DNA from: an uncultured Candidatus Saccharibacteria bacterium
GTDB lineage: Bacteria; Patescibacteriota; Minisyncoccia; Minisyncoccales; CAYVNG01
Length of the DNA stretch: 64,000 nt
NCBI GenBank assembly: GCA_964452875.1
Contig: CAYVNG010000001.1
Coordinates: 2,786-66,785 of the forward strand
Direction of reading: 5' to 3'
In this document: positions 3,980 to 38,994 of the stretch, piece after piece
Layout: every line of letters begins with the position of its first letter
Position numbering within the stretch: the first letter of the stretch is position 1
The notes under the pieces: model-generated
Told to the model about the DNA's origin: nothing
Databases searched by the model: none
Seen by the model: the letters and a program-made list of their open reading frames with translations, nothing else
Made by a program: the position numbers and the translations under genes

Positions 3980-5011
3980 TTACAGGAAAAGCTGCTTATC
4001 TTGATATTTCATCCCCATATGCTGGTAGGCCAGCCTTGTCGCCATCCTTCCTTTCGGAGTCCTTTCAATAAGGCCGAGTTGCAAGAGATATGGCTCGTAA
4101 ATATCCAGGATGGTCCCTTCTTCTTCCGCAGTCGCCGCTACCAGGGTCTTAATCCCCACTGGGCCCCCTTCGAACTTTTTAATGATGGTAGACAGGACTT
4201 TTCTGTCCCCGTTTTCCAGACCGAGAACGTCGATTTCCAAGAAATTCAATGCTTCTTCGGCCGCTTCGGCAGTTATTGTCTTTTTTCCTTCAACCTGCGA
4301 AAAATCCCTCACCCTTTTCAAAAGTCGGTTGGCGATCCTCGGGGTGAATCTGGATCTTGAAGCTATAATCTCCACGGCTTCGGACTCTATCTCCACTCCC
4401 AGTATGACAGCCGATCTTTTGATTATTTTTTCCAAATCCTCTTTTTCGTAGAAATTAAGATGAAAAGTCGCACCGAACCTGTTTCTTAGGGGGGAGGAGA
4501 TCAAAGATATTCTGGTGGTGGCCCCAACTAAGGTAAAGTGAGGGATTTTGAGCTCCATTGTCCTTGCCATTGGCCCTTTTCCTATTATCAGATTCAACTT
4601 GAAGTCTTCCATCACCGGATAGATTATTTCCTCGCAGAGTTTGTTCATCCTGTGAAGCTCGTCTATGAATAGGATGTCTCCTTCCGACAGATTGGTCAGG
4701 ATGGCTGCCAGATCTCCCGCCTTTTCTATGGCCGGTCCTGAAGTCACCTTCATATTCGCTCCCGACTCTTTAGCCACCAGGTAAGCCAAGGTTGTTTTGC
4801 CGAGCCCCGCGTTCCCGTAAAAAAGAAGATGCTCTGGGACCTCTTTCCTCTGTTTAGCGGCTTCGATTATGACACTCAGATTCTTCTTAACCTTTTCCTG
4901 TCCCACGTATTCCTGCCACGACTGAGGTCGCAAGGCCGAATCCAAATTTTCCTCTTCAAGGGAAAGAGGTCCTTCGGGGTCGCTGTTTGTCTGGAATCTT
5001 GACAAAGACAT
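3980..5011 (-). CDS. ruvB: Holliday junction branch-migration helicase RuvB
   Basis: Walker A GNAGLGKTTLA, Walker B DILFIDELHR, sensor motifs; full-length AAA+ RuvB. Confidence 0.95.
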   Translation of the reverse strand: MSLSRFQTNSDPEGPLSLEEENLDSALRPQSWQEYVGQEKVKKNLSVIIEAAKQRKEVPEHLLFYGNAGLGKTTLAYLVAKESGANMKVTSGPAIEKAGDLAAILTNLSEGDILFIDELHRMNKLCEEIIYPVMEDFKLNLIIGKGPMARTMELKIPHFTLVGATTRISLISSPLRNRFGATFHLNFYEKEDLEKIIKRSAVILGVEIESEAVEIIASRSRFTPRIANRLLKRVRDFSQVEGKKTITAEAAEEALNFLEIDVLGLENGDRKVLSTIIKKFEGGPVGIKTLVAATAEEEGTILDIYEPYLLQLGLIERTPKGRMATRLAYQHMGMKYQDKQLFL

Positions 5012-5041
5012 AATAGTTTGATATAATAAGTCGTCTGTATT

Positions 5042-5202
5042 GTAAGCGAAATATAGTTGTTCCGGAGCTGGGGGATAGGATTTTTTCTTAGTTTTTGGAT
5101 GGTCTGGGTTTCACCGAGACCTCTCCTCGGAAAAAAGTCCAAACTTTATGTTCCCAAGCTAAAGCATTCCCCCCAGCTCCGGGTCCGTTATATTTCGCTT
5201 AC
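5042..5202. repeat. imperfect 34-nt inverted repeat pair (14-6-13 arrangement) flanking about 92 bp
   Basis: Left arm 5042-5075 gtaagcgaaatatagttgttccggagctggggga. Reverse complement of 5168-5202 is gtaagcgaaatataacggacccggagctgggggga. The right arm covers the last codons and stop of gspE (..VSEI*). The enclosed segment contains the hairpin ccgagacctctcctcgg. Confidence 0.8.
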
Positions 5203-6456
5203 TCTTTCCACCTCTTCGATGGTGGTCATTTTTTTAAGGACTTTTATCATCCCGTCCTGTCCCATTGTCACCATCCCTCTTTCGACGGATTTTTCCCGCA
5301 GGGCTGCGATCGAAGGATTGGTCAAAATAAATTTTTCAGCTTCGTCGTCCATAAGGAAAGATTCGAATATTCCCACCCTGCCCTGATATCCTGTGTTGTT
5401 GCAGTATTTGCACCCCTTGGCCTTGGGGATTCTCAAAGATGAATCCAAGACTGGGAGGTGTATTGTCTTCAGAAGGGGAGACAGGATTTTTTTTATCTTT
5501 TCCAGTTCTTCTAGAGTAGGCTTTTCCATAACGCCGCATTTTTCGCATATCTTCCTTACCAGTCTCTGGGCCACGATAACGTTTATGGCCGGCCCGAGAT
5601 TCATTGGATTCGCCCCTAGGCTTATCATTCTCGCTATCGTCCCGGCAGCGTCGTTTGTATGAAGAGTCGAAAATACGAGGTGCCCTGTCAGGGCCGCCTG
5701 GATCGCTATTTTAGCGGTTTCCCCGTCCCTGATCTCTCCTACCAAGATGACGTCAGGATCCTGGCGCATTATGGACTTCAGCCCGGAAGCGAAAGTGTAT
5801 CCCTTCGAGGGATTGGTCTGCGTCTGGGTGATGTCTTCTAAATGGTATTCAATCGGGTCTTCAATGGTGATTATTTTTATCCCGGGCTTTTGTATCTTTT
5901 TTAAGAACGCGTAAAGGGTCGTTGTTTTGCCCGAGCCTGTCGGACCGGTGATTATCACCATTCCGTTCGGTTTTTTTATCTCCTTGTCGAAGACGGATAA
6001 AAGGTCGTCTCTAAGCCCCAAATCTTCCATTTTTACTAGCTTCTCTGGATCCAGTATTCTGAGGACGATCGATTCTCCCTCTTCGGAAGGGAGGACGGAT
6101 GTCCTTGCTTCGATCTCCCTTTCTTCCGTTTCAATGGTGAATCTCCCTGATTGGGGCCGGTCAGTCACGTTCAGCTTGGCCTTGGACAGGAACTTCACCC
6201 TTGAAACAATTCCTTTGTAAAGGCTAAGATCCATATCCAGGATGTCATGCAGCAGGCCGTCGATCCTGATCCTCAACCTCACCACTTTTTCCTGAGGCTC
6301 AAAATGAAGGTCGGAAGCTCTTAAGGAAACAGCTCCCCCAAGGATAATTTCCAGCAGTTTCGTGGTCGGGACTTTGAGGTTTTTTTCTATCAGTTTTTTG
6401 AAATCATCGACGCTCTCCGTCCCTTCCGAGAACAATTTGGATATTTTGACTGCCAC
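5188..6456 (-). CDS. GspE/PilB-family type II/IV secretion-system ATPase
   Basis: Walker A GPTGSGKTTT, Asp box, Walker B DPDVILVGEIRD, His box, and a C-terminal tetracysteine (CEKCG...CKYCNNTGY). Confidence 0.85.
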   Translation of the reverse strand: MAVKISKLFSEGTESVDDFKKLIEKNLKVPTTKLLEIILGGAVSLRASDLHFEPQEKVVRLRIRIDGLLHDILDMDLSLYKGIVSRVKFLSKAKLNVTDRPQSGRFTIETEEREIEARTSVLPSEEGESIVLRILDPEKLVKMEDLGLRDDLLSVFDKEIKKPNGMVIITGPTGSGKTTTLYAFLKKIQKPGIKIITIEDPIEYHLEDITQTQTNPSKGYTFASGLKSIMRQDPDVILVGEIRDGETAKIAIQAALTGHLVFSTLHTNDAAGTIARMISLGANPMNLGPAINVIVAQRLVRKICEKCGVMEKPTLEELEKIKKILSPLLKTIHLPVLDSSLRIPKAKGCKYCNNTGYQGRVGIFESFLMDDEAEKFILTNPSIAALREKSVERGMVTMGQDGMIKVLKKMTTIEEVERVSEI

Positions 6457-6472
6457 TGCTTTTGTCTTTATG

Positions 6473-7594
6473 TTAAAAATTTTCGATAAATCGCTGGTAT
6501 GCCTTTTCCACGTCTTTTTCCCTGATTAAGAACAGGGCGGTTTTTCCTTTTGAAACGCCTTCGAAACACTGGAGCACTTTTTCTGCCGATCCCTGGCGGG
6601 AAGAATGGAAAATGCCTTTCACTATCGGCGGGGAAGCGTGGCTTTCCCATAGAATAAGGAGGTTCGGCATAAGCTGGCTTCCGAAATTGAATTTCAGCTC
6701 TTTCAGGACTTCGGCCAAATCCTTAGATCCGGCCTGTGAATCCTTGAAGTCGTTCTCCGTGAGCTTGCTGCAGTAAAGCCCTTTTTCCTGGTCGAAGGCC
6801 AGTTTCTTCAAAACCTGGCCGAGTAGCTTTATCTGCGATATCGATTTCGTCTTATATAGGTTCTGAATTATCTTCTGGTGATCGGCTCCCTTTTCGATCA
6901 GCAGGGAAGATATCTCGAAGGTCTTGGGTTTCGCCTTCGGGCTTCTGAAATTTTCCGAAGCCCAGATTAATCCGGCCAGGAGAAAAGTGGCCGAAGTTTT
7001 ATCCAAAAGGCTTTCGTCCAGGGACTTGATCAGCTCGAACGACATCTCCGACAAAGAAGAAGACTTCATGTCCAGAAGGTTCACTTCTCCGAAGTCTTGA
7101 TTTTCCAATGAGTTGTCTATATTCAGGACAGGAGTATCGTAAAAGAGCGAAGGATTGCTGCTGAATTTGTCTCCCAACGTTTCGAAACTGGAGGCGCCGA
7201 CGGTTATCAAGAGATCCGGCCTGCCCTCGTCTCCCTCAAGAAATTTTTGAGAATTGAAGATTAGATCTTTTTCAGATATTCCTTCGCCGGCGGAAGTCAG
7301 ACATATTTTCAGCTCTTTACTGTCCTTTTCATAAGAGACTTCGGAAACGCTTTTTTGCCCGGGTTTTACCGAAATAACCAGCTTGGATTCGGCCAGAAAA
7401 CGGAATTCTCCCGGGATTTTTTCAATAAATAGATTTGCCTTTTTCCCGAGTTTTTTTAAACTATAGAAAAGGGCGGATGCGGCGCAAAAAGCGTCTCCTT
7501 CGATCAGGGAGAGTTCAAAATTGGCCGGGATGAACAAGCTTACGTTTCCGGCCTTGCAGATCAGGTCTTTTGCAGAATCCAATGAATCCGTCAT
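6473..7594 (-). CDS. NrnA-like DHH/DHHA1-fold protein with degenerate catalytic motifs
   Basis: N-terminal layout resembles NrnA (DLICKAGNVSLFIP...GDAFCAASALFYSLKKLGKK), but the DHH motifs and the GGGH motif of DHHA1 are not conserved (HSSRQGSAE). Confidence 0.3.
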   Translation of the reverse strand: MTDSLDSAKDLICKAGNVSLFIPANFELSLIEGDAFCAASALFYSLKKLGKKANLFIEKIPGEFRFLAESKLVISVKPGQKSVSEVSYEKDSKELKICLTSAGEGISEKDLIFNSQKFLEGDEGRPDLLITVGASSFETLGDKFSSNPSLFYDTPVLNIDNSLENQDFGEVNLLDMKSSSLSEMSFELIKSLDESLLDKTSATFLLAGLIWASENFRSPKAKPKTFEISSLLIEKGADHQKIIQNLYKTKSISQIKLLGQVLKKLAFDQEKGLYCSKLTENDFKDSQAGSKDLAEVLKELKFNFGSQLMPNLLILWESHASPPIVKGIFHSSRQGSAEKVLQCFEGVSKGKTALFLIREKDVEKAYQRFIENF

Positions 7595-7651
7595 TTTTTA
7601 ATTAATTAAGATTAGCTTAGTTTTTAAAAACGGTCAACCCCGGAAAAGAAA

Positions 7652-8119
7652 ATGGAAGATTTTTTAACCCTAGGCGGAGAGCAGACGAAAAAAGCGGGAG
7701 CCCTTTTCGCAAAAAAGATACTGGGAAAGGGTTTTTTTGATAAAAAGACCATTGTCATAGGGCTGACCGGGAATCTCGGGGGAGGGAAGACCACTTTCGT
7801 GCAGGGGTTTGCCAAGGGATTGGGGATAGAAGAAAAAATCCTCAGCCCCACCTTCGTTCTGGCCAGAAGGTTTCTCATTCCGAAAGCCTTGGGTTCCAAA
7901 GCCAGAGCGCTTTATCATATTGACTGCTACAGGATGAAAAATCCAAAAGAGCTGCTGGACATCGGTTTTGAAAAAATGATTTCTGGAGCCGGGAACATCG
8001 TCATAGCGGAATGGGCCGACCGGGTGAAAAAGATATTTCCCAAGGATGCCTTTATGGTCGATTTTCTTTTTTTAGAGGAAAATAAAAGGAGGATAAGAAT
8101 AAAATGGGGAAAGCAGTAA
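7652..8119 (+). CDS. tsaE: tRNA t6A37 biosynthesis ATPase TsaE
   Basis: P-loop GLTGNLGGGKTTFVQGF; about 150 aa, YjeE family. Confidence 0.8.
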   Translation: MEDFLTLGGEQTKKAGALFAKKILGKGFFDKKTIVIGLTGNLGGGKTTFVQGFAKGLGIEEKILSPTFVLARRFLIPKALGSKARALYHIDCYRMKNPKELLDIGFEKMISGAGNIVIAEWADRVKKIFPKDAFMVDFLFLEENKRRIRIKWGKQ

Positions 8120-32221: not shown

Positions 32222-32565
32222 GTGGAGGTGGAGGGATTGAACCCTCGTCCAGAAAGTTTAATGAATTCTCTCTACAGGTTTAGCCGGTTTTTTCTTTTCG
32301 GAGCGCCGGATATGAAACTGGCAAAATTCCGATGCTCCCAGTCCCAGAAGTTCAACAGCCGTTCGGGACGGGTCGGCTGTCTATCCCGAAGATTTGACAC
32401 CCGGCTTCCGCTCATCGGGAGTCGGCGGAGCGGATGGCTTTAAGCGTAAGCTAAAGCGGGTTGTTTGAATAAGTTGGCACTTATTGCTTTCTAGAAGTTT
32501 TGTCAGATTCTAGAATACTGAACCTGCCGAACTCTATAAACGTTCCTGTCGAATCTTTCACCCCC
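32222..32565 (-). ncRNA. ssrA: tmRNA (ssrA), tag peptide ANLFKQPALAYA
   Basis: Minus-strand 5' end GGGGGUGAAAGAUUCGACAGGAACG matches the E. coli 5' end GGGGCUGAUUCUGGAUUCGACGGG. Minus-strand 3' end GGACGAGGGUUCAAUCCCUCCACCUCCAC matches GGACGCGGGUUCAACUCCCGCCAGCUCCACCA (T-arm and acceptor). Acceptor GGGGGUG/CACCUCC has the G3.U pair and an A discriminator; CCA is not encoded. Tag region AAUAAGU GCC AAC UUA UUC AAA CAA CCC GCU UUA GCU UAC GCU UAA sits at 32440-32478. Length 344 nt. Confidence 0.8.
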
Positions 32566-33007
32566 GCATCCTCAATTCTCTCTTTATTTTCATATCCAAC
32601 TCCCTCTTTTTTATCAGTTCTCTCTTATTAATGGTTTTTTTCCCTCTTCCTATCCCGAATTCAAGCTTAATTTTTTCTTTTTTAGTATATATCTTTAACG
32701 GGATTAAAGTCAAGCTTTTTTGGCTTGTCTTTCCGATCAAATACCTTATTTCCTCTCTGTTTAAAAGCAGCTTCCTGGGCCGTTTGCTGTCGTAGTTTCC
32801 AGGGGCGTTGGCCGGCTGATAGGCCGGGATGGTCGCTTCCACCCAGAAAAACTCGCCCTTTTTCAGGGAAACGTAGGATCCAGCCAAATTGACGCTCCTT
32901 TCTTTGATCGATTTCACTTCCTGGCCGGTCAAAGATAATCCGGCTTCGAACTTCTCCAGGATCTGGTGGTTGAAATATGCTTTTTTGTTTTCGGCGATTG
33001 TTGGCAT
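32558..33007 (-). CDS. smpB: SsrA-binding protein SmpB
   Basis: MPTIAENKKAYFNHQILEKFEAGLSLTGQEVKS...KLLLNREEIRYL...; its last two codons and stop overlap the tmRNA 5' end. Confidence 0.9.
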   Translation of the reverse strand: MPTIAENKKAYFNHQILEKFEAGLSLTGQEVKSIKERSVNLAGSYVSLKKGEFFWVEATIPAYQPANAPGNYDSKRPRKLLLNREEIRYLIGKTSQKSLTLIPLKIYTKKEKIKLEFGIGRGKKTINKRELIKKRELDMKIKRELRMRG

Positions 33008-33463
33008 TTACCTTTTCTCCAATCTTAGCATAAGAAAGAGAAGGGATCTCCAGTAAAGGTTCATCCTTTTGCTCTTCGCCTCCTTAAAGGAATATTTTTC
33101 ATCCTGCTTTTGCACTCTCACGCGGTAAACGGCGACAAGTATCCCGGTCCTGTCCATTCCTTTCCGACAGTGGATCAGAACAGGAATTTTTTCCGGTTTT
33201 TCGAACAGGCTCAAAAAATTGCGGATGCCCTCCTTGTCTGTTCTGCGGAAGATATTCTTGAGGGGGATGTGCATCAGGGATATGCCGTTGTCCCTGGCGA
33301 ATTTTTCCTCGAAATCCTCGACCGCTCCCCTCAGGTCGATTATGGTCTTGATGCCGTATTTCTCTTTGAGATAGCTCAAAAAATAACCGCTTGGCTGGGC
33401 GGACCGGTACAATTTTCCCGGGTCGACGATTTCGAAATTGTAGTTTGACTCCAAAGTTCCCAT
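33008..33463 (-). CDS. protein tyrosine/dual-specificity phosphatase
   Basis: CX5R P-loop HCRKGMDRTG. Confidence 0.7.
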   Translation of the reverse strand: MGTLESNYNFEIVDPGKLYRSAQPSGYFLSYLKEKYGIKTIIDLRGAVEDFEEKFARDNGISLMHIPLKNIFRRTDKEGIRNFLSLFEKPEKIPVLIHCRKGMDRTGILVAVYRVRVQKQDEKYSFKEAKSKRMNLYWRSLLFLMLRLEKR

Positions 33464-33543
33464 AAAAGAAGCGGTTTTTATTCCATTATACTTCCATTTC
33501 CTTGTTTTTCCAGCGATTGCGTCCGGCCGTTTTAAAAGGTAAA

Positions 33544-35139
33544 ATGAACCTGATGGTGCGCCAGATGATAAAAAAAGAAGTGGAAGAGGCGGTGGAGTCT
33601 CTCCAGAAGGAAAGGGTCTTCCCTGATTTTGAGATGCCTGTCATTGGAGTGGGGCGTTCCCAGAAGCCCGAGCAGGGAGATTATTCCGTCAATGCGGCCA
33701 TGACCATAGCCAAAGAGATCCGAAAAGACCCTTTTGAAACGGCAGAGGTCATCGTTGAAAAATTGAGGCACAAGGAATCGGTTTTCTCCAAGGTGGAATG
33801 CGCAAGGCCGGGATTCGTCAACTTTTTCCTGAAAGAAGAATATCTTCAGGATTATCTCAGAGAAGTGCTGGAAAAAGGAGACAATTTCGGAACTTTGGCA
33901 GGAGGGGGAAAGGTGAATGTCGAGTTCATTTCCGGAAATCCGACCGGTCCTTTGCATATCGGGAACGGGAGGAGCGCATTCGCCGGAGACGTTCTGGCCA
34001 ATGTCTTGGAAAAAAGCGGGCGAGAAGTGGCCAGGGAATATTATATAAACGACGCCACTTCCAGCCTTCAGATTGCCACTATTAAGGACACTGTTTCGCA
34101 GATCGGCAGCGAAGCTGCCAAAGGAACTCTTCCTTATTACACTCCATATCTTGAAGAAAAGGTTTTAACATTGGGTTCTGGGGCGAACATCGACCAAATA
34201 ATCGCTTCTATCCAGGAAGACAACAGGAAATTCATCGCTGAAAAATTGAAGATAAGGTTTGACAACTGGATTTCCGAGAAAAGCGACATCTACGGAAATG
34301 GCGGAACCGAAGATCTCCTCAAATGGCTTTATGATAAAGGCCTGGTTTACGAAAAAGAAGGAGCCATATGGATCAAACTTTCTCAATTCGGCAGCGAAAA
34401 AGACTGGGTGCTGGTCAGAAAGAACGGATTCGGCACATATCTGCTCGGGGACATCGCTTACCATAAAAACAAATTTGACCGCGGTTTTGACAAATTAATC
34501 AACATCTGGGGAGCGGACCACCAGGCTCATGTGAGCAAGATGAAGGCGGCAGCCAGGATGCTCGGCAGGGAAGGGGATCTTGAAATCCTGATACTCCAGC
34601 TGGTGACTCTCAAAGGGAAAGAAAAGCTTTCAAAGAGATCGGGAAAGATCGTCACCTTAGAAGAACTTATCAATGAGATCGGCTTGGACGCGGCGAGATG
34701 GTTTTACCTCCAAAAATCCCTTGATACCCACATGGAAATCGATATCAGCCTGGCGAAAGAGCAGTCTGAAAGGAATCCGGTCTATTACGTCCAGTACGCC
34801 CATGCCAGGATCTGCAGCATTTTCAGGAAAGCTGGCATCAAGGACGTTTCAGCTGAGGACACTCATTTGCTCAGCCATCCTTCAGAACTCCAGCTTTTGA
34901 GGAAGATAACTCTTTTCCCTGAAATAGTAGAAGACACGGCTGAAGACTATCAGATCCAAAGGCTTTCCAAATACGCCTTGGATTTGGCCGGTTCCTTCCA
35001 CCAGTTTTACGGGGACTGCAAAGTGATTTCAGACGACGAAAAAATGACTCGGGCCAGGCTTTCTTTAGCTTTGGGAGCCAGGATCGCCTTAAAAAACACG
35101 CTGTCGCTGATGGGGATATCCGCTCCGGAGCAAATGTAG
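33544..35139 (+). CDS. argS: arginyl-tRNA synthetase
   Basis: HIGH-type PTGPLHIGNGRSA; anticodon-binding DALD-type C-terminus ending ...GISAPEQM. The ORF also allows a TTG start at 33502. Confidence 0.9.
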   Translation: MNLMVRQMIKKEVEEAVESLQKERVFPDFEMPVIGVGRSQKPEQGDYSVNAAMTIAKEIRKDPFETAEVIVEKLRHKESVFSKVECARPGFVNFFLKEEYLQDYLREVLEKGDNFGTLAGGGKVNVEFISGNPTGPLHIGNGRSAFAGDVLANVLEKSGREVAREYYINDATSSLQIATIKDTVSQIGSEAAKGTLPYYTPYLEEKVLTLGSGANIDQIIASIQEDNRKFIAEKLKIRFDNWISEKSDIYGNGGTEDLLKWLYDKGLVYEKEGAIWIKLSQFGSEKDWVLVRKNGFGTYLLGDIAYHKNKFDRGFDKLINIWGADHQAHVSKMKAAARMLGREGDLEILILQLVTLKGKEKLSKRSGKIVTLEELINEIGLDAARWFYLQKSLDTHMEIDISLAKEQSERNPVYYVQYAHARICSIFRKAGIKDVSAEDTHLLSHPSELQLLRKITLFPEIVEDTAEDYQIQRLSKYALDLAGSFHQFYGDCKVISDDEKMTRARLSLALGARIALKNTLSLMGISAPEQM

Positions 35140-35219: not shown

Positions 35220-38200
35220 ATGGATCTGAATTTTCCCAAAATTGAAGAGAAAATCCTGAGATTTTGGCGCAAGGACGACACTTTCAAAAAGAGCGTAAAG
35301 CAGAGGAAAGATGCCCGTAGGTTCGTATTTTTTGAAGGGCCTCCCACTGCCAACGGCAGGGCCGGAATACACCACATTCTGGCAAGAATCTTCAAGGATG
35401 TCATCTGCAGGTACAAGGCCATGCAGGGCTTTAAGGTTGAAAGGAAAGCCGGGTGGGACACCCACGGCCTTCCGGTCGAGCTCGAGGTTGAAAAAAGGCT
35501 CGGGCTGAAGAGCAAGAAGGAAATAGAGAAATACGGGATCGCCAAATTCAACAAGCAGTGCAGAAAGTCGGTCTGGCTTTATCAGCAGGACTGGGAAAAA
35601 ATCACCGAAAGGATAGGGTTTTGGGTGGACATGGAAAATCCTTACATCACTTACAAGAACGGCTATATCGAGTCGGTCTGGAGCATTTTGAAAAAAATCA
35701 GCGAAAAAAATCTCGTCTACCAGGATTACAAATCGGTTCCTTACTGCCCGAGGTGCGGCACGGTCCTGTCCAGCCACGAAGTCGCTTTGGGCTACAAAAA
35801 GGTGAAAGACCCGGCAGTCTACGTCAAGTTCAGGCTCGAGGATGAAGAATCAACCAGCCTGCTCGTCTGGACGACCACTCCCTGGACGCTGCCCGGTAAT
35901 ACCGGGATTGCCGTGAATCCGGATTTCGTTTATGTGAAAGCGAAGTTTGGTGACGAGAAACTGATTTTGCTCAAAGAAAAGATCCACATCCTCGGAAATG
36001 AAGTTGAAGCGTCAGAAGAAATCAAAGGGAAAGACCTTGTCGGCCTGAAATACCTGCCTTTTTATCCCTCTGAAAAAGCGGTCAGCCAGGGAAGCAATTA
36101 CAAGGTGATAGCGGGGAGTTTCGTCTCCTTGGAGGACGGCACGGGACTGGTCCACATAGCCCCGGCTTTCGGGGAAGAGGACCTGGAAGTGGGCAAGAAA
36201 AACAACCTTCTGGTCTTGAAAACGGTTGACGAAGCAGGCAGGATGACGACCCCAGGATACGCCTGGGACAACCTTTTCGTGAAAGAAGCAGATCCGATGG
36301 TCACAGAGGATCTGGAAACAAAAGGCCTGCTTTTCAAGAAAGAAGATTATGAGCACGATTATCCTTTTTGCTGGAGATGCGGATCCCCATTGCTTTATTA
36401 TGCGAAGCAGAGCTGGTTTATAAACATGCAGAAGGTGAAAAAACAGCTTATTTTAAATAATGAAAGGATAAACTGGGTCCCTTCGCATTTGAAAGAAGGC
36501 AGGGTCGGAGAATGGCTCAGGGAGGTCAAGGACTGGGCCTTTTCCAGAGAGAGATACTGGGGGACTCCGCTGCCAGTATGGGAATGCGATAAATGCAAGA
36601 AAAAAATATTCATCGGCGGAATGGCAGAATTGTCCTCGCAGAAAGCCAGTAAGAACAATTTTTATTTCATCAGGCACGGAGAGTCTTTAAGGCAGAAAAG
36701 GAGAATATCTGCGTGCTTCCCAGAGAAGCTGCGCTGTCCCTTGACTCCAAAAGGAAGAAAGCAGGTTGAAGAACAGGCAAAGAAGTTAAAAGCCAAGAAG
36801 ATCGACCTTATCTTCTCTTCCGATCTTTTAAGGACCAAAGAAACAGCCGAGATTATAAGCAAGGAGATCAAGGTGAAACCCGCATACGACAAAAGGCTGC
36901 GGGAGTATAACGCCGGGATTTTCAACGGAAAATCGGTAGACCTAATCCATTCATATTTTAAGAACGACCTGGATTTGAGGTTCAAGAAAAGGATCCCCAA
37001 AGGGGAGAGCTATACCGACCTCCAGAGAAGGATGCACCAGTTTTTGAAAGAAATCAATGAAAAATACGAAGGGAAAAATATTCTGGTGGTGAGTCATGAG
37101 ACGCCTCTGACCTTGCTGGAAGCAGCTCTCAAAGGGATTCCCAAAAAGGAATTTTTCGCTTTCAGGGAAAAAAATAAGCTCGAGGTGTCAGAATTTAAGA
37201 AAGTTGAATTCAGAAATTTCCCATACGACCTCGATATGGAAATAGACCTTCACAGGCCGTACGTAGACGAAATCGAATTTTACTGCTCTTGTCAGAAAGG
37301 GAAAATGAAGAGAGTAAAAGAGGTCATTGATTGCTGGTTTGATTCAGGCTCCATGCCTTTCGCCCAGGCCCATTGGCCTTTTGACCAGAAGGATGGGTCA
37401 AAAAAGCCTCCCGCGCTTTTTCCGGCAGACTACATCTCAGAAGCGGTGGATCAGACCAGGGGCTGGTTCTACACTCTGCATGCCATCTCAACTTTGCTTA
37501 ATTTCGGCCCGGCATACAAAAATGTTATTTCCGTCGGCCACATTTTGGACAAGAAAGGAGAAAAGATGTCAAAGTCCAAAGGCAATGTGGTGAATCCCTG
37601 GCAGATGATTTCGATATACGGGGCCGACGCCGTGAGATGGTATCTCTTCACTTTGAACCAGCCCGGTGACTCCAAGCTTTTTTCGGAAAAAGATCTTTCC
37701 GAGTCGCTCAGAAGGTTTGCAATGACTTTCTGGAACTGCGCAAAGTTTTTTGAAACTTATAGGGCCGAAGCTTCGAAATCTCCAAAAAACGTCAAAAATC
37801 TTCTTGACAAATGGATTCTGTCCAGGCTGAGCTTTGTCGAAAGATCAGTCGGGAAAATGATGGGAGAATACGACGTCACTTCCGCGGCCAGACTGATAGA
37901 GAATTTCGTCATAGAAGACCTTTCTTTGTGGTACATCAGGAGGTCTCGAAGGAGGTTTCAGAAGCCGGAAACGAAAGAGGAGCTGCAGGAAGCAGCTTTT
38001 GTGCTGGAAGCCGTGTTGAAGGAGGTATCTCTGATCTTGGCTCCTTTCGTCCCTTTCTTGAGCGAAAAAGTCTACAGCATGGCAGGGGGGAGAAAAAGCG
38101 TCCACCTTGAAGATTGGCCGAAGAATATTGGTAAAAGGGAAGATAAGAAGCTGGACGAAAGTATGAATCTGGTAAGGGAAGTGGTGAAACTCGGTCTCAA

Positions 38201-38693
38201 AATCAGAGCTTCTTCCGGATTGAAGCTGAGGCAGCCTTTGAGCGAGTTAAGATTCCGCATCAAGGGAACGGTTCTTGGAAAAGGGCTGGAAGGCCTGATT
38301 AAAGAAGAACTGAATGTAAAAAAGATAAAATCAGCGAAGACCATGCCCTCTGGCCGCTTTTGGAAAAAAGAAGAAAGCGGGAAAATCAATGCCGCCTTGA
38401 ATGTCGAGATGACCCAAGAGCTGAAAGAAGAAGGGGAGGTAAAAGAAATTTTGAGATTTGCTCAGGAAATGAGGAAAGAAGGCGGTCTTAAACCGAAAGA
38501 CAGGATTGAGATATATTATTCCGGGAATTTTGAAATCAGCAACATAATTAAAAGAAACAAAGATATCATTTTGAAGGAAACCAAGGCGCAAGGACTTTTT
38601 GAAGGGAAAAAGCCGGGAATGGGGTATAATATAGAAAAGGAGGTAAAAGTCGACAGCCGAACCATTTGGTTGGGCATAAAAAAGGTCAAATAA
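35220..38693 (+). CDS. ileS: isoleucyl-tRNA synthetase (type 2) carrying an inserted histidine-phosphatase domain
   Basis: PPTANGRAGIHHI (HIGH region), CP1 editing domain (TTPWTLPGNTGIAVNP), WAFSRERYWGTPLPVWECDKC, DCWFDSGSMP, KMSKSKGN, and an IleRS type-2 C-terminus. 1157 aa because of the internal insertion. Confidence 0.9.
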   Translation: MDLNFPKIEEKILRFWRKDDTFKKSVKQRKDARRFVFFEGPPTANGRAGIHHILARIFKDVICRYKAMQGFKVERKAGWDTHGLPVELEVEKRLGLKSKKEIEKYGIAKFNKQCRKSVWLYQQDWEKITERIGFWVDMENPYITYKNGYIESVWSILKKISEKNLVYQDYKSVPYCPRCGTVLSSHEVALGYKKVKDPAVYVKFRLEDEESTSLLVWTTTPWTLPGNTGIAVNPDFVYVKAKFGDEKLILLKEKIHILGNEVEASEEIKGKDLVGLKYLPFYPSEKAVSQGSNYKVIAGSFVSLEDGTGLVHIAPAFGEEDLEVGKKNNLLVLKTVDEAGRMTTPGYAWDNLFVKEADPMVTEDLETKGLLFKKEDYEHDYPFCWRCGSPLLYYAKQSWFINMQKVKKQLILNNERINWVPSHLKEGRVGEWLREVKDWAFSRERYWGTPLPVWECDKCKKKIFIGGMAELSSQKASKNNFYFIRHGESLRQKRRISACFPEKLRCPLTPKGRKQVEEQAKKLKAKKIDLIFSSDLLRTKETAEIISKEIKVKPAYDKRLREYNAGIFNGKSVDLIHSYFKNDLDLRFKKRIPKGESYTDLQRRMHQFLKEINEKYEGKNILVVSHETPLTLLEAALKGIPKKEFFAFREKNKLEVSEFKKVEFRNFPYDLDMEIDLHRPYVDEIEFYCSCQKGKMKRVKEVIDCWFDSGSMPFAQAHWPFDQKDGSKKPPALFPADYISEAVDQTRGWFYTLHAISTLLNFGPAYKNVISVGHILDKKGEKMSKSKGNVVNPWQMISIYGADAVRWYLFTLNQPGDSKLFSEKDLSESLRRFAMTFWNCAKFFETYRAEASKSPKNVKNLLDKWILSRLSFVERSVGKMMGEYDVTSAARLIENFVIEDLSLWYIRRSRRRFQKPETKEELQEAAFVLEAVLKEVSLILAPFVPFLSEKVYSMAGGRKSVHLEDWPKNIGKREDKKLDESMNLVREVVKLGLKIRASSGLKLRQPLSELRFRIKGTVLGKGLEGLIKEELNVKKIKSAKTMPSGRFWKKEESGKINAALNVEMTQELKEEGEVKEILRFAQEMRKEGGLKPKDRIEIYYSGNFEISNIIKRNKDIILKETKAQGLFEGKKPGMGYNIEKEVKVDSRTIWLGIKKVK
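36660..37259 (+). other. about 200-aa PGAM-type histidine-phosphatase domain inserted in-frame in IleRS
   Basis: FYFIRHGESLRQ (RHGE catalytic His), LTPKGRKQVEEQAKKL, SSDLLRTKETAEII, EYNAGIFNGKS, VVSHETPLTLL (second His). Lies between the Zn knuckle (WECDKC) and WFDSG of the synthetase core. Confidence 0.75.
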
Positions 38694-38703
38694 TGATTTA
38701 AAT

Positions 38704-38994
38704 ATGCCTTTATTCGAAAAAAAACAGGACCTGAGCAGAGCTGAAGTGAGGGAAGCTCTCAGAAAGGCTTCTTATCAGATTCCAGGCGGAGGAGGGATAA
38801 TCTCGAAAGAGGACCGGGTGAAATTGGAAAAAGAAGTGCTCCCCAGAAGCAAATTCGGAGATAGGATAGATCAGAGAGATTACGACAAGGGGATTAGGGA
38901 TTTGGAGAAAGCAAAATATGCCGCCAAGACGAGCAAGGAGAAAATTGAAATTGACAGGCAAATAAGAGTTTTAAAGAGTTTGCGTGACAAATAA
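38704..38994 (+). CDS. hypothetical protein (96 aa, charged)
   Basis: ORF tightly packed between ileS and recO; no recognisable motif. Confidence 0.4.
   Translation: MPLFEKKQDLSRAEVREALRKASYQIPGGGGIISKEDRVKLEKEVLPRSKFGDRIDQRDYDKGIRDLEKAKYAAKTSKEKIEIDRQIRVLKSLRDK

Follow-up and report, generated by a model that had tools for sequence, protein, structure and literature searches.

Aminoacyl-tRNA synthetases (aaRSs) are among the best-studied enzymes, and their accessory domains (editing domains, tRNA-binding appendices and the signalling add-ons of eukaryotes) have each revealed new biology. Whether a phosphatase might belong to this repertoire is the question raised by a gene located in a 64,000-nucleotide stretch of DNA, termed the window in this study, which covers positions 2,786 to 66,785 of contig CAYVNG010000001.1 (assembly GCA_964452875.1) from an uncultured Candidatus Saccharibacteria bacterium. 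The gene, ileS, encodes a type-2 isoleucyl-tRNA synthetase (IleRS), and an initial inspection of its sequence (the original prediction) had proposed that this enzyme contains an embedded histidine phosphatase. Our analysis shows that a capped phosphatase domain of about 190 residues interrupts the Zn-knuckle loop of the synthetase, between its motifs WGTPLPVW and WFDSG, and that this arrangement is neither an artefact nor confined to a single organism.

A histidine phosphatase in the Zn knuckle of IleRS

The host gene and the features of the nested domain are located in the window as follows:

35220..38693, forward strand: ileS, one unbroken open reading frame (ORF) encoding the 1157-residue type-2 IleRS that hosts the phosphatase domain
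36654..37211, forward strand: nested histidine-phosphatase domain (His_Phos_1), residues 479–664, starting at N479 and ending with the final strand EVSEFKKVEF
36672..36680, forward strand: RHG motif, which closes strand 1, with R485, H486 (the nucleophile) and G487
36672-36686, forward strand: RHGES motif, residues 485–489
Residues 508–512, forward strand: LTPKG block
Residues 533–543, forward strand: SSDLLRTKETA motif
36831..36833, forward strand: R538, the second phosphate-binding arginine, within SSDLLRTKETA
36903..36905, forward strand: E562, the putative proton donor, within RLRE, aligned with the glutamate of the LRE motif of PhoE
37086-37100, forward strand: VVSHE motif, residues 623–627
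37095..37097, forward strand: H626, the second catalytic histidine, within VVSHE
37212..37244, forward strand: C-terminal linker RNFPYDLDMEI, which leads back to the IleRS motif DLHRPYVD

The in-frame insertion of about 200 residues between WECDKC and WFDSG, on which the original prediction was based, is confirmed by the continuous ORF, by the match to the IleRS equivalog TIGR00392, which at 897.4 bits exceeds its cut-off of 621.4 and is divided into two stretches flanking the insert, and by the Pfam family His_Phos_1 (PF00300). The latter covers residues 481–650 with an E-value of 3.3e-38 and 131.8 bits in the context of the full protein, and it is recovered with an E-value of 8.4e-40 and 136.9 bits if, as had been proposed as a check, the segment 36660–37259 is searched by itself (cut-off 21.7 in both cases). 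An alignment with insert-less orthologues places the insertion roughly between residues 473 and 675, in place of a loop of about 10–15 residues, and the predicted boundaries (residues 481–680) were essentially right by this measure. With an orthologous loop of such short length and an insert that encompasses a full His_Phos_1 domain, a known connective-peptide (CP) insertion of IleRS devoid of catalytic residues is ruled out. The base composition over the insert is unremarkable.

The motifs RHGES, LTxxG, SSDLLRTKETA and VVSHE, from which the domain had been recognised, are each found where the prediction had placed them; the acidic catalytic residue E562, contained in RLRE, had been overlooked. 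R538, E562 and H626 align with the corresponding residues of PhoE (1EBB/1H2E). The score for PF00300, the RHG motif, the presence of a second arginine, an acidic residue and a second histidine, and the alpha/beta fold together place the domain in branch 1 of the histidine phosphatase superfamily. Judged from its sequence, the insert constitutes a real and complete member of this branch with the full predicted catalytic set R485, H486, R538, E562 and H626, and would act as an active phosphomonoesterase working via a phospho-histidine intermediate. In a full-length AlphaFold2 (AF2) model, the predicted local distance difference test (pLDDT) reaches values of 83–97 for residues 450–700 and of 83–91 for the C-terminal linker. 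The linkers are short and conserved, with N479 being invariant and F664, P668 and D676 present in at least 90% of sequences in an alignment of 59 full-length fusions.

The same alignment bears out the claim that the catalytic residues are intact: R485, H486, R538 and H626 are found in 59 of 59 sequences, and position 562 is always acidic (glutamate in 50, aspartate in 9). Across a wider set of 311 nested copies, R485 and H486 are present in 308, the other three being N-terminally truncated, R538 in 310 and H626 in all 311. The complete R-H-R-[E/D]-H set is contained in 304/311 nested domains and in 110/111 free ones. The seven nested exceptions comprise the three truncated sequences, one alignment gap at the acidic position and three real substitutions. 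This conservation across nested copies argues for an insert that has been kept functional, and the domain is thus very probably functional, as originally proposed. Purifying selection is also indicated by the mean pairwise identity of the insert (0.525), which comes close to that of the C-terminal domain of IleRS (0.542).

Authenticity and distribution of the architecture

The identical 1157-residue protein (P0121) occurs on five contigs and has entries in four collections (ncbi, jgi, lgn and ena). All of its 120 best full-length homologues (1116–1214 residues, 53–58% identity) carry PF00300 together with the IleRS domains, in answer to the survey of related genomes that had been suggested; their source names refer to Nealsonbacteria, Wildermuthbacteria, Pacebacteria/Paceibacterota, Parcubacteria and Patescibacteria. 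Since identical proteins are found on five contigs and listed in four collections, and since the same domain is present in hundreds of homologues, a chimera resulting from misassembly is ruled out. An exhaustive search of 1.84 billion representatives clustered at 50% identity, carried out with an alignment profile that spans the junctions, retrieved matches which in nearly all of the best 150 representatives cover the whole profile contiguously, with rank 150 still scoring 376 bits. At this level of identity (50%), at least about 150 clusters thus share the architecture. In some members, the cysteines of the Zn knuckle have been lost and the insert is retained. Instead of being a one-off curiosity, the fusion is thus a widespread and old architecture in Patescibacteria that is contained in many public records, where the homologues are automatically annotated simply as IleRS or 'class I tRNA ligase family protein'.

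In line with the initial remark that no aaRS with an embedded phosphatase was known, our literature look-ups found no published description of an aaRS with a histidine-phosphatase domain, and the arrangement is not mentioned in two recent papers on the evolution and structure of IleRS or in a 2026 survey of domain insertions. What appears to be new here is the nesting of a histidine phosphatase in an aaRS; multi-domain synthetases and portable histidine-phosphatase modules are already known.

Relationship of the domain to known phosphatases

The domain fold is nearest to capped small-molecule phosphatases (PhoE, PspA, CobC), with PspA/iPSP1 (4IJ5) as top structural neighbour, and a small or nucleotide-like phosphomonoester is therefore mildly favoured as a substrate. 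Its nearest known counterparts, PhoE from G. stearothermophilus (1H2E/1EBB), PspA/iPSP1, CobC (6E4B), GpgP (6S2Q) and the riboflavin-pathway HFP (9MMH), are free-standing enzymes, whereas the domain of the window is nested in an aaRS or, in relatives, encoded directly upstream of it. It shares an identity of only 22–28% with this group, reaches no NCBIfam equivalog threshold, and is set apart by a conserved C-W-P-E-K loop following strand 1. Among named subfamilies, the alpha-ribazole phosphatase CobC (TIGR03162) scores best, yet remains at 107.6 versus a cut-off of 162.9. The assignment as cofactor-dependent phosphoglycerate mutase was rejected based on the scores of the insert for TIGR01258 (26.6 vs 81.7), NF038349 (89.8 vs 225) and GpmB NF002901 (90.7 vs 261), and the same applies to the phosphoserine phosphatase PspA (NF045917, 88.1 vs 350) and the phosphohistidine phosphatase SixA (TIGR00249, 34 vs 74.5), which shows a compact cap-less fold of about 155 residues.

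As a portable branch-1 module of a kind found paired with kinases, nucleases and Nudix hydrolases, the domain resembles the phosphatases of PFK-2/FBPase-2 (1BIF), of the mycobacterial RNase H/acid phosphatase (NF005567, Rv2228c type), of the MutT1 Nudix and histidine-phosphatase protein (9CXX, 3FJY) and of TFIIIC tau55 (2YN0), all of which were recovered as sequence or structural relatives. These fusions run end-to-end and do not involve an aaRS, in contrast to the domain of the window, which sits in the middle of another domain.

The host synthetase

The motifs that define the host are distributed on both sides of the insert:

35364..35375, forward strand: GIHH (residues 49–52), a non-canonical version of the class I HIGH motif with the swapped order GXHH
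35745..36380, forward strand: CP1 editing domain, between CPRC (residues 176–179) and CWRC (residues 384–387), with WTTTPWTLPGN at residues 217–227
36585..36596, forward strand: CDKC (C456/C459), the first of the two halves of the Zn knuckle, immediately following WGTPLPVW
37284..37292, forward strand: second half of the Zn knuckle, CSC (residues 689–691, C689/C691)
37335..37349, forward strand: WFDSG motif (residues 706–710), from which the Rossmann fold continues with its second half, with W706, D708 and G710 being invariant
37563..37577, forward strand: KMSKS loop (residues 782–786), invariant in the alignment of 59 sequences

The protein thus contains the class I signature motifs GIHH and KMSKS and the motifs of the CP1 editing domain with its flanking CxxC pairs. 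The residues of CPRC, CWRC and WTTTPWTLPGN are invariant in the 59 full-length members, and we take this region to be the CP1 domain based on established knowledge of IleRS. Equally invariant are C456, C459 and C689 of the Zn knuckle, a region that, from its order in the sequence, presumably corresponds to CP3 in the nomenclature used for the connective peptides of IleRS (PMC11685878). Besides His_Phos_1, Pfam matches include tRNA-synt_1, Anticodon_1 and DUF5915 (residues 1049–1155). The predicted identity as type-2 enzyme is upheld by the DUF5915 C-terminal region, by the GXHH motif and by the best structural match to the IleRS2 from P. megaterium (8C8U, template modelling (TM) score 0.77), which ranks before the IleRS1 structure 8C9E. 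Other near solved structures are those of T. thermophilus IleRS (1ILE) and of yeast IleRS in complex with tRNA (8WND); the insert is absent from the closest solved IleRS chains, which comprise 821–1061 residues compared to 1157 in the window.

The window protein shares with P. megaterium IleRS2 (8C8U/8C8W; PMC10485003) the class, the DUF5915 region and the swapped GIHH motif, and it differs from this and other solved or described IleRS enzymes in the catalytic domain located within its Zn knuckle. The G-x-H-H motif is present in 56/59 close homologues (G49 in 58/59, H51 in 58/59 and H52 in 56/59). It is described as the variant that is confined to IleRS2 and linked to hyper-resistance to mupirocin (PMC10485003; Brkic et al. 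2023). In relatives with a free phosphatase gene, the HIGH motif is either GIHH or the canonical HYGH. The acquired mupirocin-resistance enzymes MupA (NF000257) and MupB (NF000258) were rejected as identities with scores of 817 and 822 bits vs cut-offs of 1900, as was ileS_w_GNAT (NF040702), with 300.8 bits vs a cut-off of 1999 and no acetyltransferase match from Pfam in the window protein. The window gene is best explained as the housekeeping type-2 ileS of the organism whose product was turned bifunctional.

A precedent for such a gain of function by insertion is found in the same enzyme, since CP1 is itself a catalytic domain inserted into the class Ia Rossmann fold via a Zn-stabilised connection (PMC13114784; PMC11685878). 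The nested phosphatase resembles in this respect the CP1 editing domain, the classic example of a second active site that an aaRS gained through insertion. Unlike CP1, which is universal in IleRS, ValRS and LeuRS and hydrolyses mis-acylated tRNA, the phosphatase is lineage-specific and belongs to an unrelated superfamily, and its tie to aminoacylation is putative.

The properties of the host also bear on a regulatory or protective role, in which the phosphatase would dephosphorylate IleRS or a partner and thereby reverse an inhibitory phosphorylation of the HipA type known for other synthetases, or, alternatively, would sense or destroy a phosphorylated inhibitor or alarmone aimed at IleRS. 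The GXHH motif, with its tie to antibiotic hyper-resistance, hints at past selection by IleRS-targeting compounds. Similarly, the protein phosphatases SixA, PGAM5 and Sts are members of the superfamily that were recovered as structural relatives, and some relatives of the window protein embed GNAT domains, which elsewhere detoxify aminoacyl-nucleotide antibiotics. Despite these hints, we regard such a role as highly improbable.

Free-standing relatives and the origin of the nested domain

Free-standing proteins of about 188–198 residues from the same phyla are 49–55% identical to the insert and align with it from end to end. In the four cases that were looked up, the gene shares its strand with argS and ileS and is located between the two. 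The ileS that it immediately precedes has no insert and encodes 923–959 residues, with about 10–15 residues at the position where the window protein contains about 200. Free homologues with 49–52% identity were found in this intergenic position on five contigs. The order L20-L35-IF3 / SmpB / ArgRS / phosphatase / IleRS / RecO / DUF7619 describes the common block. In the nested arrangement, argS and ileS have no other gene between them, and the two are separated in the window by an empty gap of 80 nucleotides, with the upstream operon partner assigned from its ORF and from synteny:

33502..35139, forward strand: argS, encoding ArgRS

When each GTDB species was represented by one genome and scanned with a profile, 245 species were found to contain a relative of the domain. 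In the best 80 of these 245 loci, the arrangements were:

Domain nested in ileS: 46 species
Free gene directly upstream of ileS: 31 species (26 within 200 base pairs (bp), gaps from -7 to 1637 bp)
Two-domain form: 2 species
Free gene away from ileS, on a short contig (L023): 1 species

In the last case, the gene follows an ORF resembling MetK and precedes unrelated genes on a 5.9-kb contig from Paceibacterota.

Because a tree of the phosphatase domain alone does not resolve the relationships, with very short internal branches and nested and free forms being interleaved, the origin of the nesting was investigated in a tree of the host IleRS (neighbour-joining, 910–926 columns, 100 bootstraps). 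In this tree, 42 of 43 nested forms and the two double-domain forms fall into one clade, and the split defining the 42 members is found in 64/100 bootstraps; the remaining nested sequence, L070, has a long branch and is placed outside. Lineages with a free upstream gene are located basal to the nested clade (nine species with the canonical HYGH) and as its sister (eight species in the GIHH clade), and the free upstream gene is thus ancestral and the nesting derived. On this basis, the nesting at the site found in the window is essentially of single origin, and the sequence comparison firmly supports the derivation of the nested domain from the gene that is otherwise located directly upstream of ileS.

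Some loci of this group show additional features. In certain relatives, an ORF of 203–208 residues with no Pfam match is placed between the free phosphatase gene and ileS (L003 6700-7311, L004 3579-4190, L007 6663-7289, L008 6675-7289), and its two versions have the motif L-x-L-Y-W-x-G-S-x-W in common at the C terminus. Several ORFs take the place of a continuous fusion-type ileS in L001 (four ORFs; 4470-8047, on a 270-kb ENA contig) and in L002 (two ORFs; 1-1881, Nealsonbacteria PFCK01000041), which may reflect either sequencing frameshifts or real gene splits.

In the window itself, ileS is followed by an ORF of 96 residues with no Pfam match (38704-38994, forward strand) that precedes recO, and ORFs of 87–129 residues are found at the same position in L001, L003, L006 and L089. 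On the other side of argS, the reverse strand encodes a protein of 151 residues (33008-33463) that resembles cysteine-based dual-specificity and tyrosine phosphatases (HCRKGMDRTG; Pfam PTP-NADK 60 bits, Y_phosphatase3 54 bits) and that constitutes an unrelated second phosphatase in the block. It is located between argS and smpB; in several related loci, the spacing of smpB and argS of about 30–50 bp leaves no room for this gene. A transfer-messenger RNA gene (32222-32565, reverse strand) with the tag peptide ANLFKQPALAYA adjoins smpB (32558-33007, reverse strand), with an overlap of a few bases at the 3' end of the latter.

Insertions at other sites

With six conserved motifs of IleRS used as anchors, nested phosphatases were assigned to distinct sites, in a set of long proteins in which site 1 is over-represented owing to the query:

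Site 1 (WGTPLPVW...DLHRP, the site of the window): 241 proteins, and a further 23 that may belong to either site 1 or site 1b
Sites 1 and 1b (1b being located in the second knuckle half): P0327, P0375, P0328
Sites 1 and 2 (2 being located after WFDSG...PFAQ and before DQTRGWF): L049, L050
Sites 1 and 3 (3 being located between KMSKS and NWYIRRSR): P0273, P0334
Sites 1b and 2, with a third copy beginning at site 3: P0340
Sites 2 and 3: P0361
Site 3 only: P0326

The IleRS of L049 and L050 (1368 residues; L050 4510-8613 on the 957-kb contig JBAZJI010000001) illustrates the multi-copy forms, with two nested histidine phosphatases of which the second follows the first by about 50 residues and is about 40% identical to the insert of the window. 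In P0326 and P0361, the Zn knuckle is intact and carries no insert. The genes in their vicinity (UvrB/UvrC/AlaRS for P0326, PurA/DAHP synthase/SLH proteins for P0361) are unrelated to the block of Paceibacteria, and no free phosphatase gene was found in either neighbourhood upon inspection. Both loci and that of P0385 differ from this block also in their guanine-cytosine (GC) content, and the proteins with insertions at other sites (P0340, P0361, P0326, P0273, P0334 and P0327; loci L090 and L092) occur as a group in unrelated genome contexts. Copies within one protein share 24–33% identity, and their positional counterparts across proteins share 43–53%. As counterparts are closer than copies of the same protein, the multi-copy architectures are old and conserved. 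Independent recurrences of the domain at three other sites of IleRS, in unrelated lineages, are firmly established at the level of sequence. A search with the site-3 junction of P0326 found inserts at this position to be rare (P0416, P0497) and mostly retrieved matches to the flanks of Chloroflexota-type IleRS.

In two proteins, other enzymatic modules accompany the phosphatase. P0385 (1561 residues; L091 6001-10686), which is represented by 13 cluster members on contigs of up to 2.1 Mb with a locus GC content of 57%, combines the phosphatase at site 1 with two acetyltransferase modules, a GNAT domain located inside CP1 and a GNAT-like one at site 2. An IleRS hosting an extra enzymatic domain has a curated precedent in ileS_w_GNAT (NF040702), from which the window protein differs in the inserted fold and P0385 also in the sites of its GNAT domains. 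P0377 (1395 residues, on a single contig of 11.6 kb) carries, in addition to the phosphatase at site 1, a P-loop kinase-like module at site 2 (GACGAGKT; Pfam AAA_18/AAA_33, with weak matches to Zeta_toxin and CPT). This pairing of a kinase with a phosphatase is reminiscent of end-healing enzymes or of PFK-2/FBPase-2.

The resemblance to end-healing enzymes leads to a conceivable role in the repair of tRNA 3' ends, in which the phosphatase would free A76 from a blocking phosphate (3' or 2') or pyrophosphate, allowing the tRNA to be recharged in the same binding event. Such blocks would arise from nuclease damage or from the pyrophosphorylation of CCA ends by toxins, an activity exerted by toxSAS enzymes. 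In favour of this role, short and conserved linkers tether the domain to the connective peptides of the catalytic body, and in the close family its net basic charge per residue exceeds that of the remaining protein (0.093 vs 0.042). However, this charge is not a general feature, as the value amounts to 0.036 for all nested copies of the wider set and to 0.109 for free ones, and the argument for RNA binding was dropped due to this inconsistency between data sets. The fold also retains a cap that is typical of small-molecule enzymes, no reason is apparent why tRNA-Ile alone would require repair, and we know of no branch-1 member that acts on RNA ends. We thus consider tRNA repair as very unlikely.

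Is the phosphatase coupled to isoleucylation?

According to what is known as Rosetta-stone reasoning, a functional link usually exists between proteins that form a fusion in certain genomes and are encoded separately elsewhere. Following this logic, the repeated genetic and physical coupling of the phosphatase to IleRS would be a consequence of selection rather than accident, and the free form would probably work together with IleRS in organisms where both genes are separate. From the sequence data, we regard a real functional coupling between both activities as reasonably probable, and as more likely than the presence of a passenger domain, because of the Rosetta-stone fusion, the adjacency in the operon and the repeated choice of IleRS even in cases where no phosphatase gene is located nearby.

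If the domain were instead a passenger, a metabolic phosphatase encoded beside ileS would have been copied into permissive loops by local duplication and deletion, and its activity would be chemically unrelated to that of the synthetase. The fusion would then merely secure co-expression in an essential and constitutively expressed protein, as a product of constructive neutral evolution in streamlined genomes. Several observations are consistent with such an origin and consequently weigh against a functional link. The insertion sites are without exception loops of variable length, which are possibly just permissive, and loops of IleRS also accommodate other, unrelated enzyme modules such as the GNAT and P-loop kinase-like domains. 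The nearest structural relatives are metabolic small-molecule phosphatases, and the insert evolves faster than the catalytic core (mean pairwise identity of 0.525 for the insert, 0.542 for the C-terminal domain of IleRS and 0.71–0.77 for the core). Because the whole SmpB-ArgRS-IleRS-RecO block is syntenic in Paceibacteria, the 31 cases of adjacency were inherited with it and are not independent, and adjacency by itself could have favoured a local insertion into ileS with no functional link. Moreover, the free homologue of L023 (714-1280), which is about 50% identical to the insert, does not adjoin ileS and is instead found beside the MetK-like ORF. The reading of a coupled activity is further weakened by the fact that the domain reaches the threshold of none of the named subfamilies (CobC, GpmB, PspA, SixA), and that the full-length AF2 model, with a predicted TM score (pTM) of 0.58 and a pLDDT below 50 in the Rossmann catalytic core, does not permit an interpretation of inter-domain geometry.

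The passenger account has more difficulty to explain why the same family was inserted into IleRS at no fewer than four sites, including in unrelated neighbourhoods with no adjacent phosphatase gene, why up to three diverged copies are retained per protein with the catalytic residues intact in each, and why the host is ileS in every locus examined, although ArgRS is equally adjacent to the free gene. We thus consider a passenger domain as possible but doubtful.

As for the substrate of a coupled phosphatase, our tentative guess, in which we place low confidence, is the terminal phosphate of a nucleotide-like compound that would be generated or bound at the synthetase. Candidates include adenosine monophosphate (AMP) or another nucleotide by-product, or a 2'- or 3'-phosphorylated adenosine such as a blocked CCA end of tRNA, whose dephosphorylation would keep the aminoacylation site or the tRNA substrate clear. 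The substrates put forward in the original prediction, a tRNA 3'-phosphate end or a nucleotide by-product, are likewise to be regarded as guesses. In a stronger version, which we find rather unlikely, the phosphatase would form a third active site of IleRS, next to those for synthesis and editing, and act in cis on a compound bound to the synthetase, with a phosphorylated or pyrophosphorylated CCA end or a nucleotide in the synthetic site being repaired or cleared before charging. The insertion at four sites, the versions with multiple copies and the argS-phosphatase-ileS operon would then reflect selection for proximity.

The presence of a phosphatase with intact catalytic residues inside IleRS or immediately upstream of it across a large part of Patescibacteria, together with its independent gain at other IleRS sites elsewhere, implies a link between the hydrolysis of phosphate esters and isoleucylation of which we found no description. 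If this link is chemical, in the form of tRNA-end repair, nucleotide clearance or a defence against inhibitors, synthetases would be associated with a new class of activity, which could show how ultra-small symbiotic bacteria protect their translation. If it is confined to co-expression, the family would provide a clear natural case of repeated domain nesting in an essential enzyme, which would be useful for deriving protein-engineering rules on permissive insertion sites.

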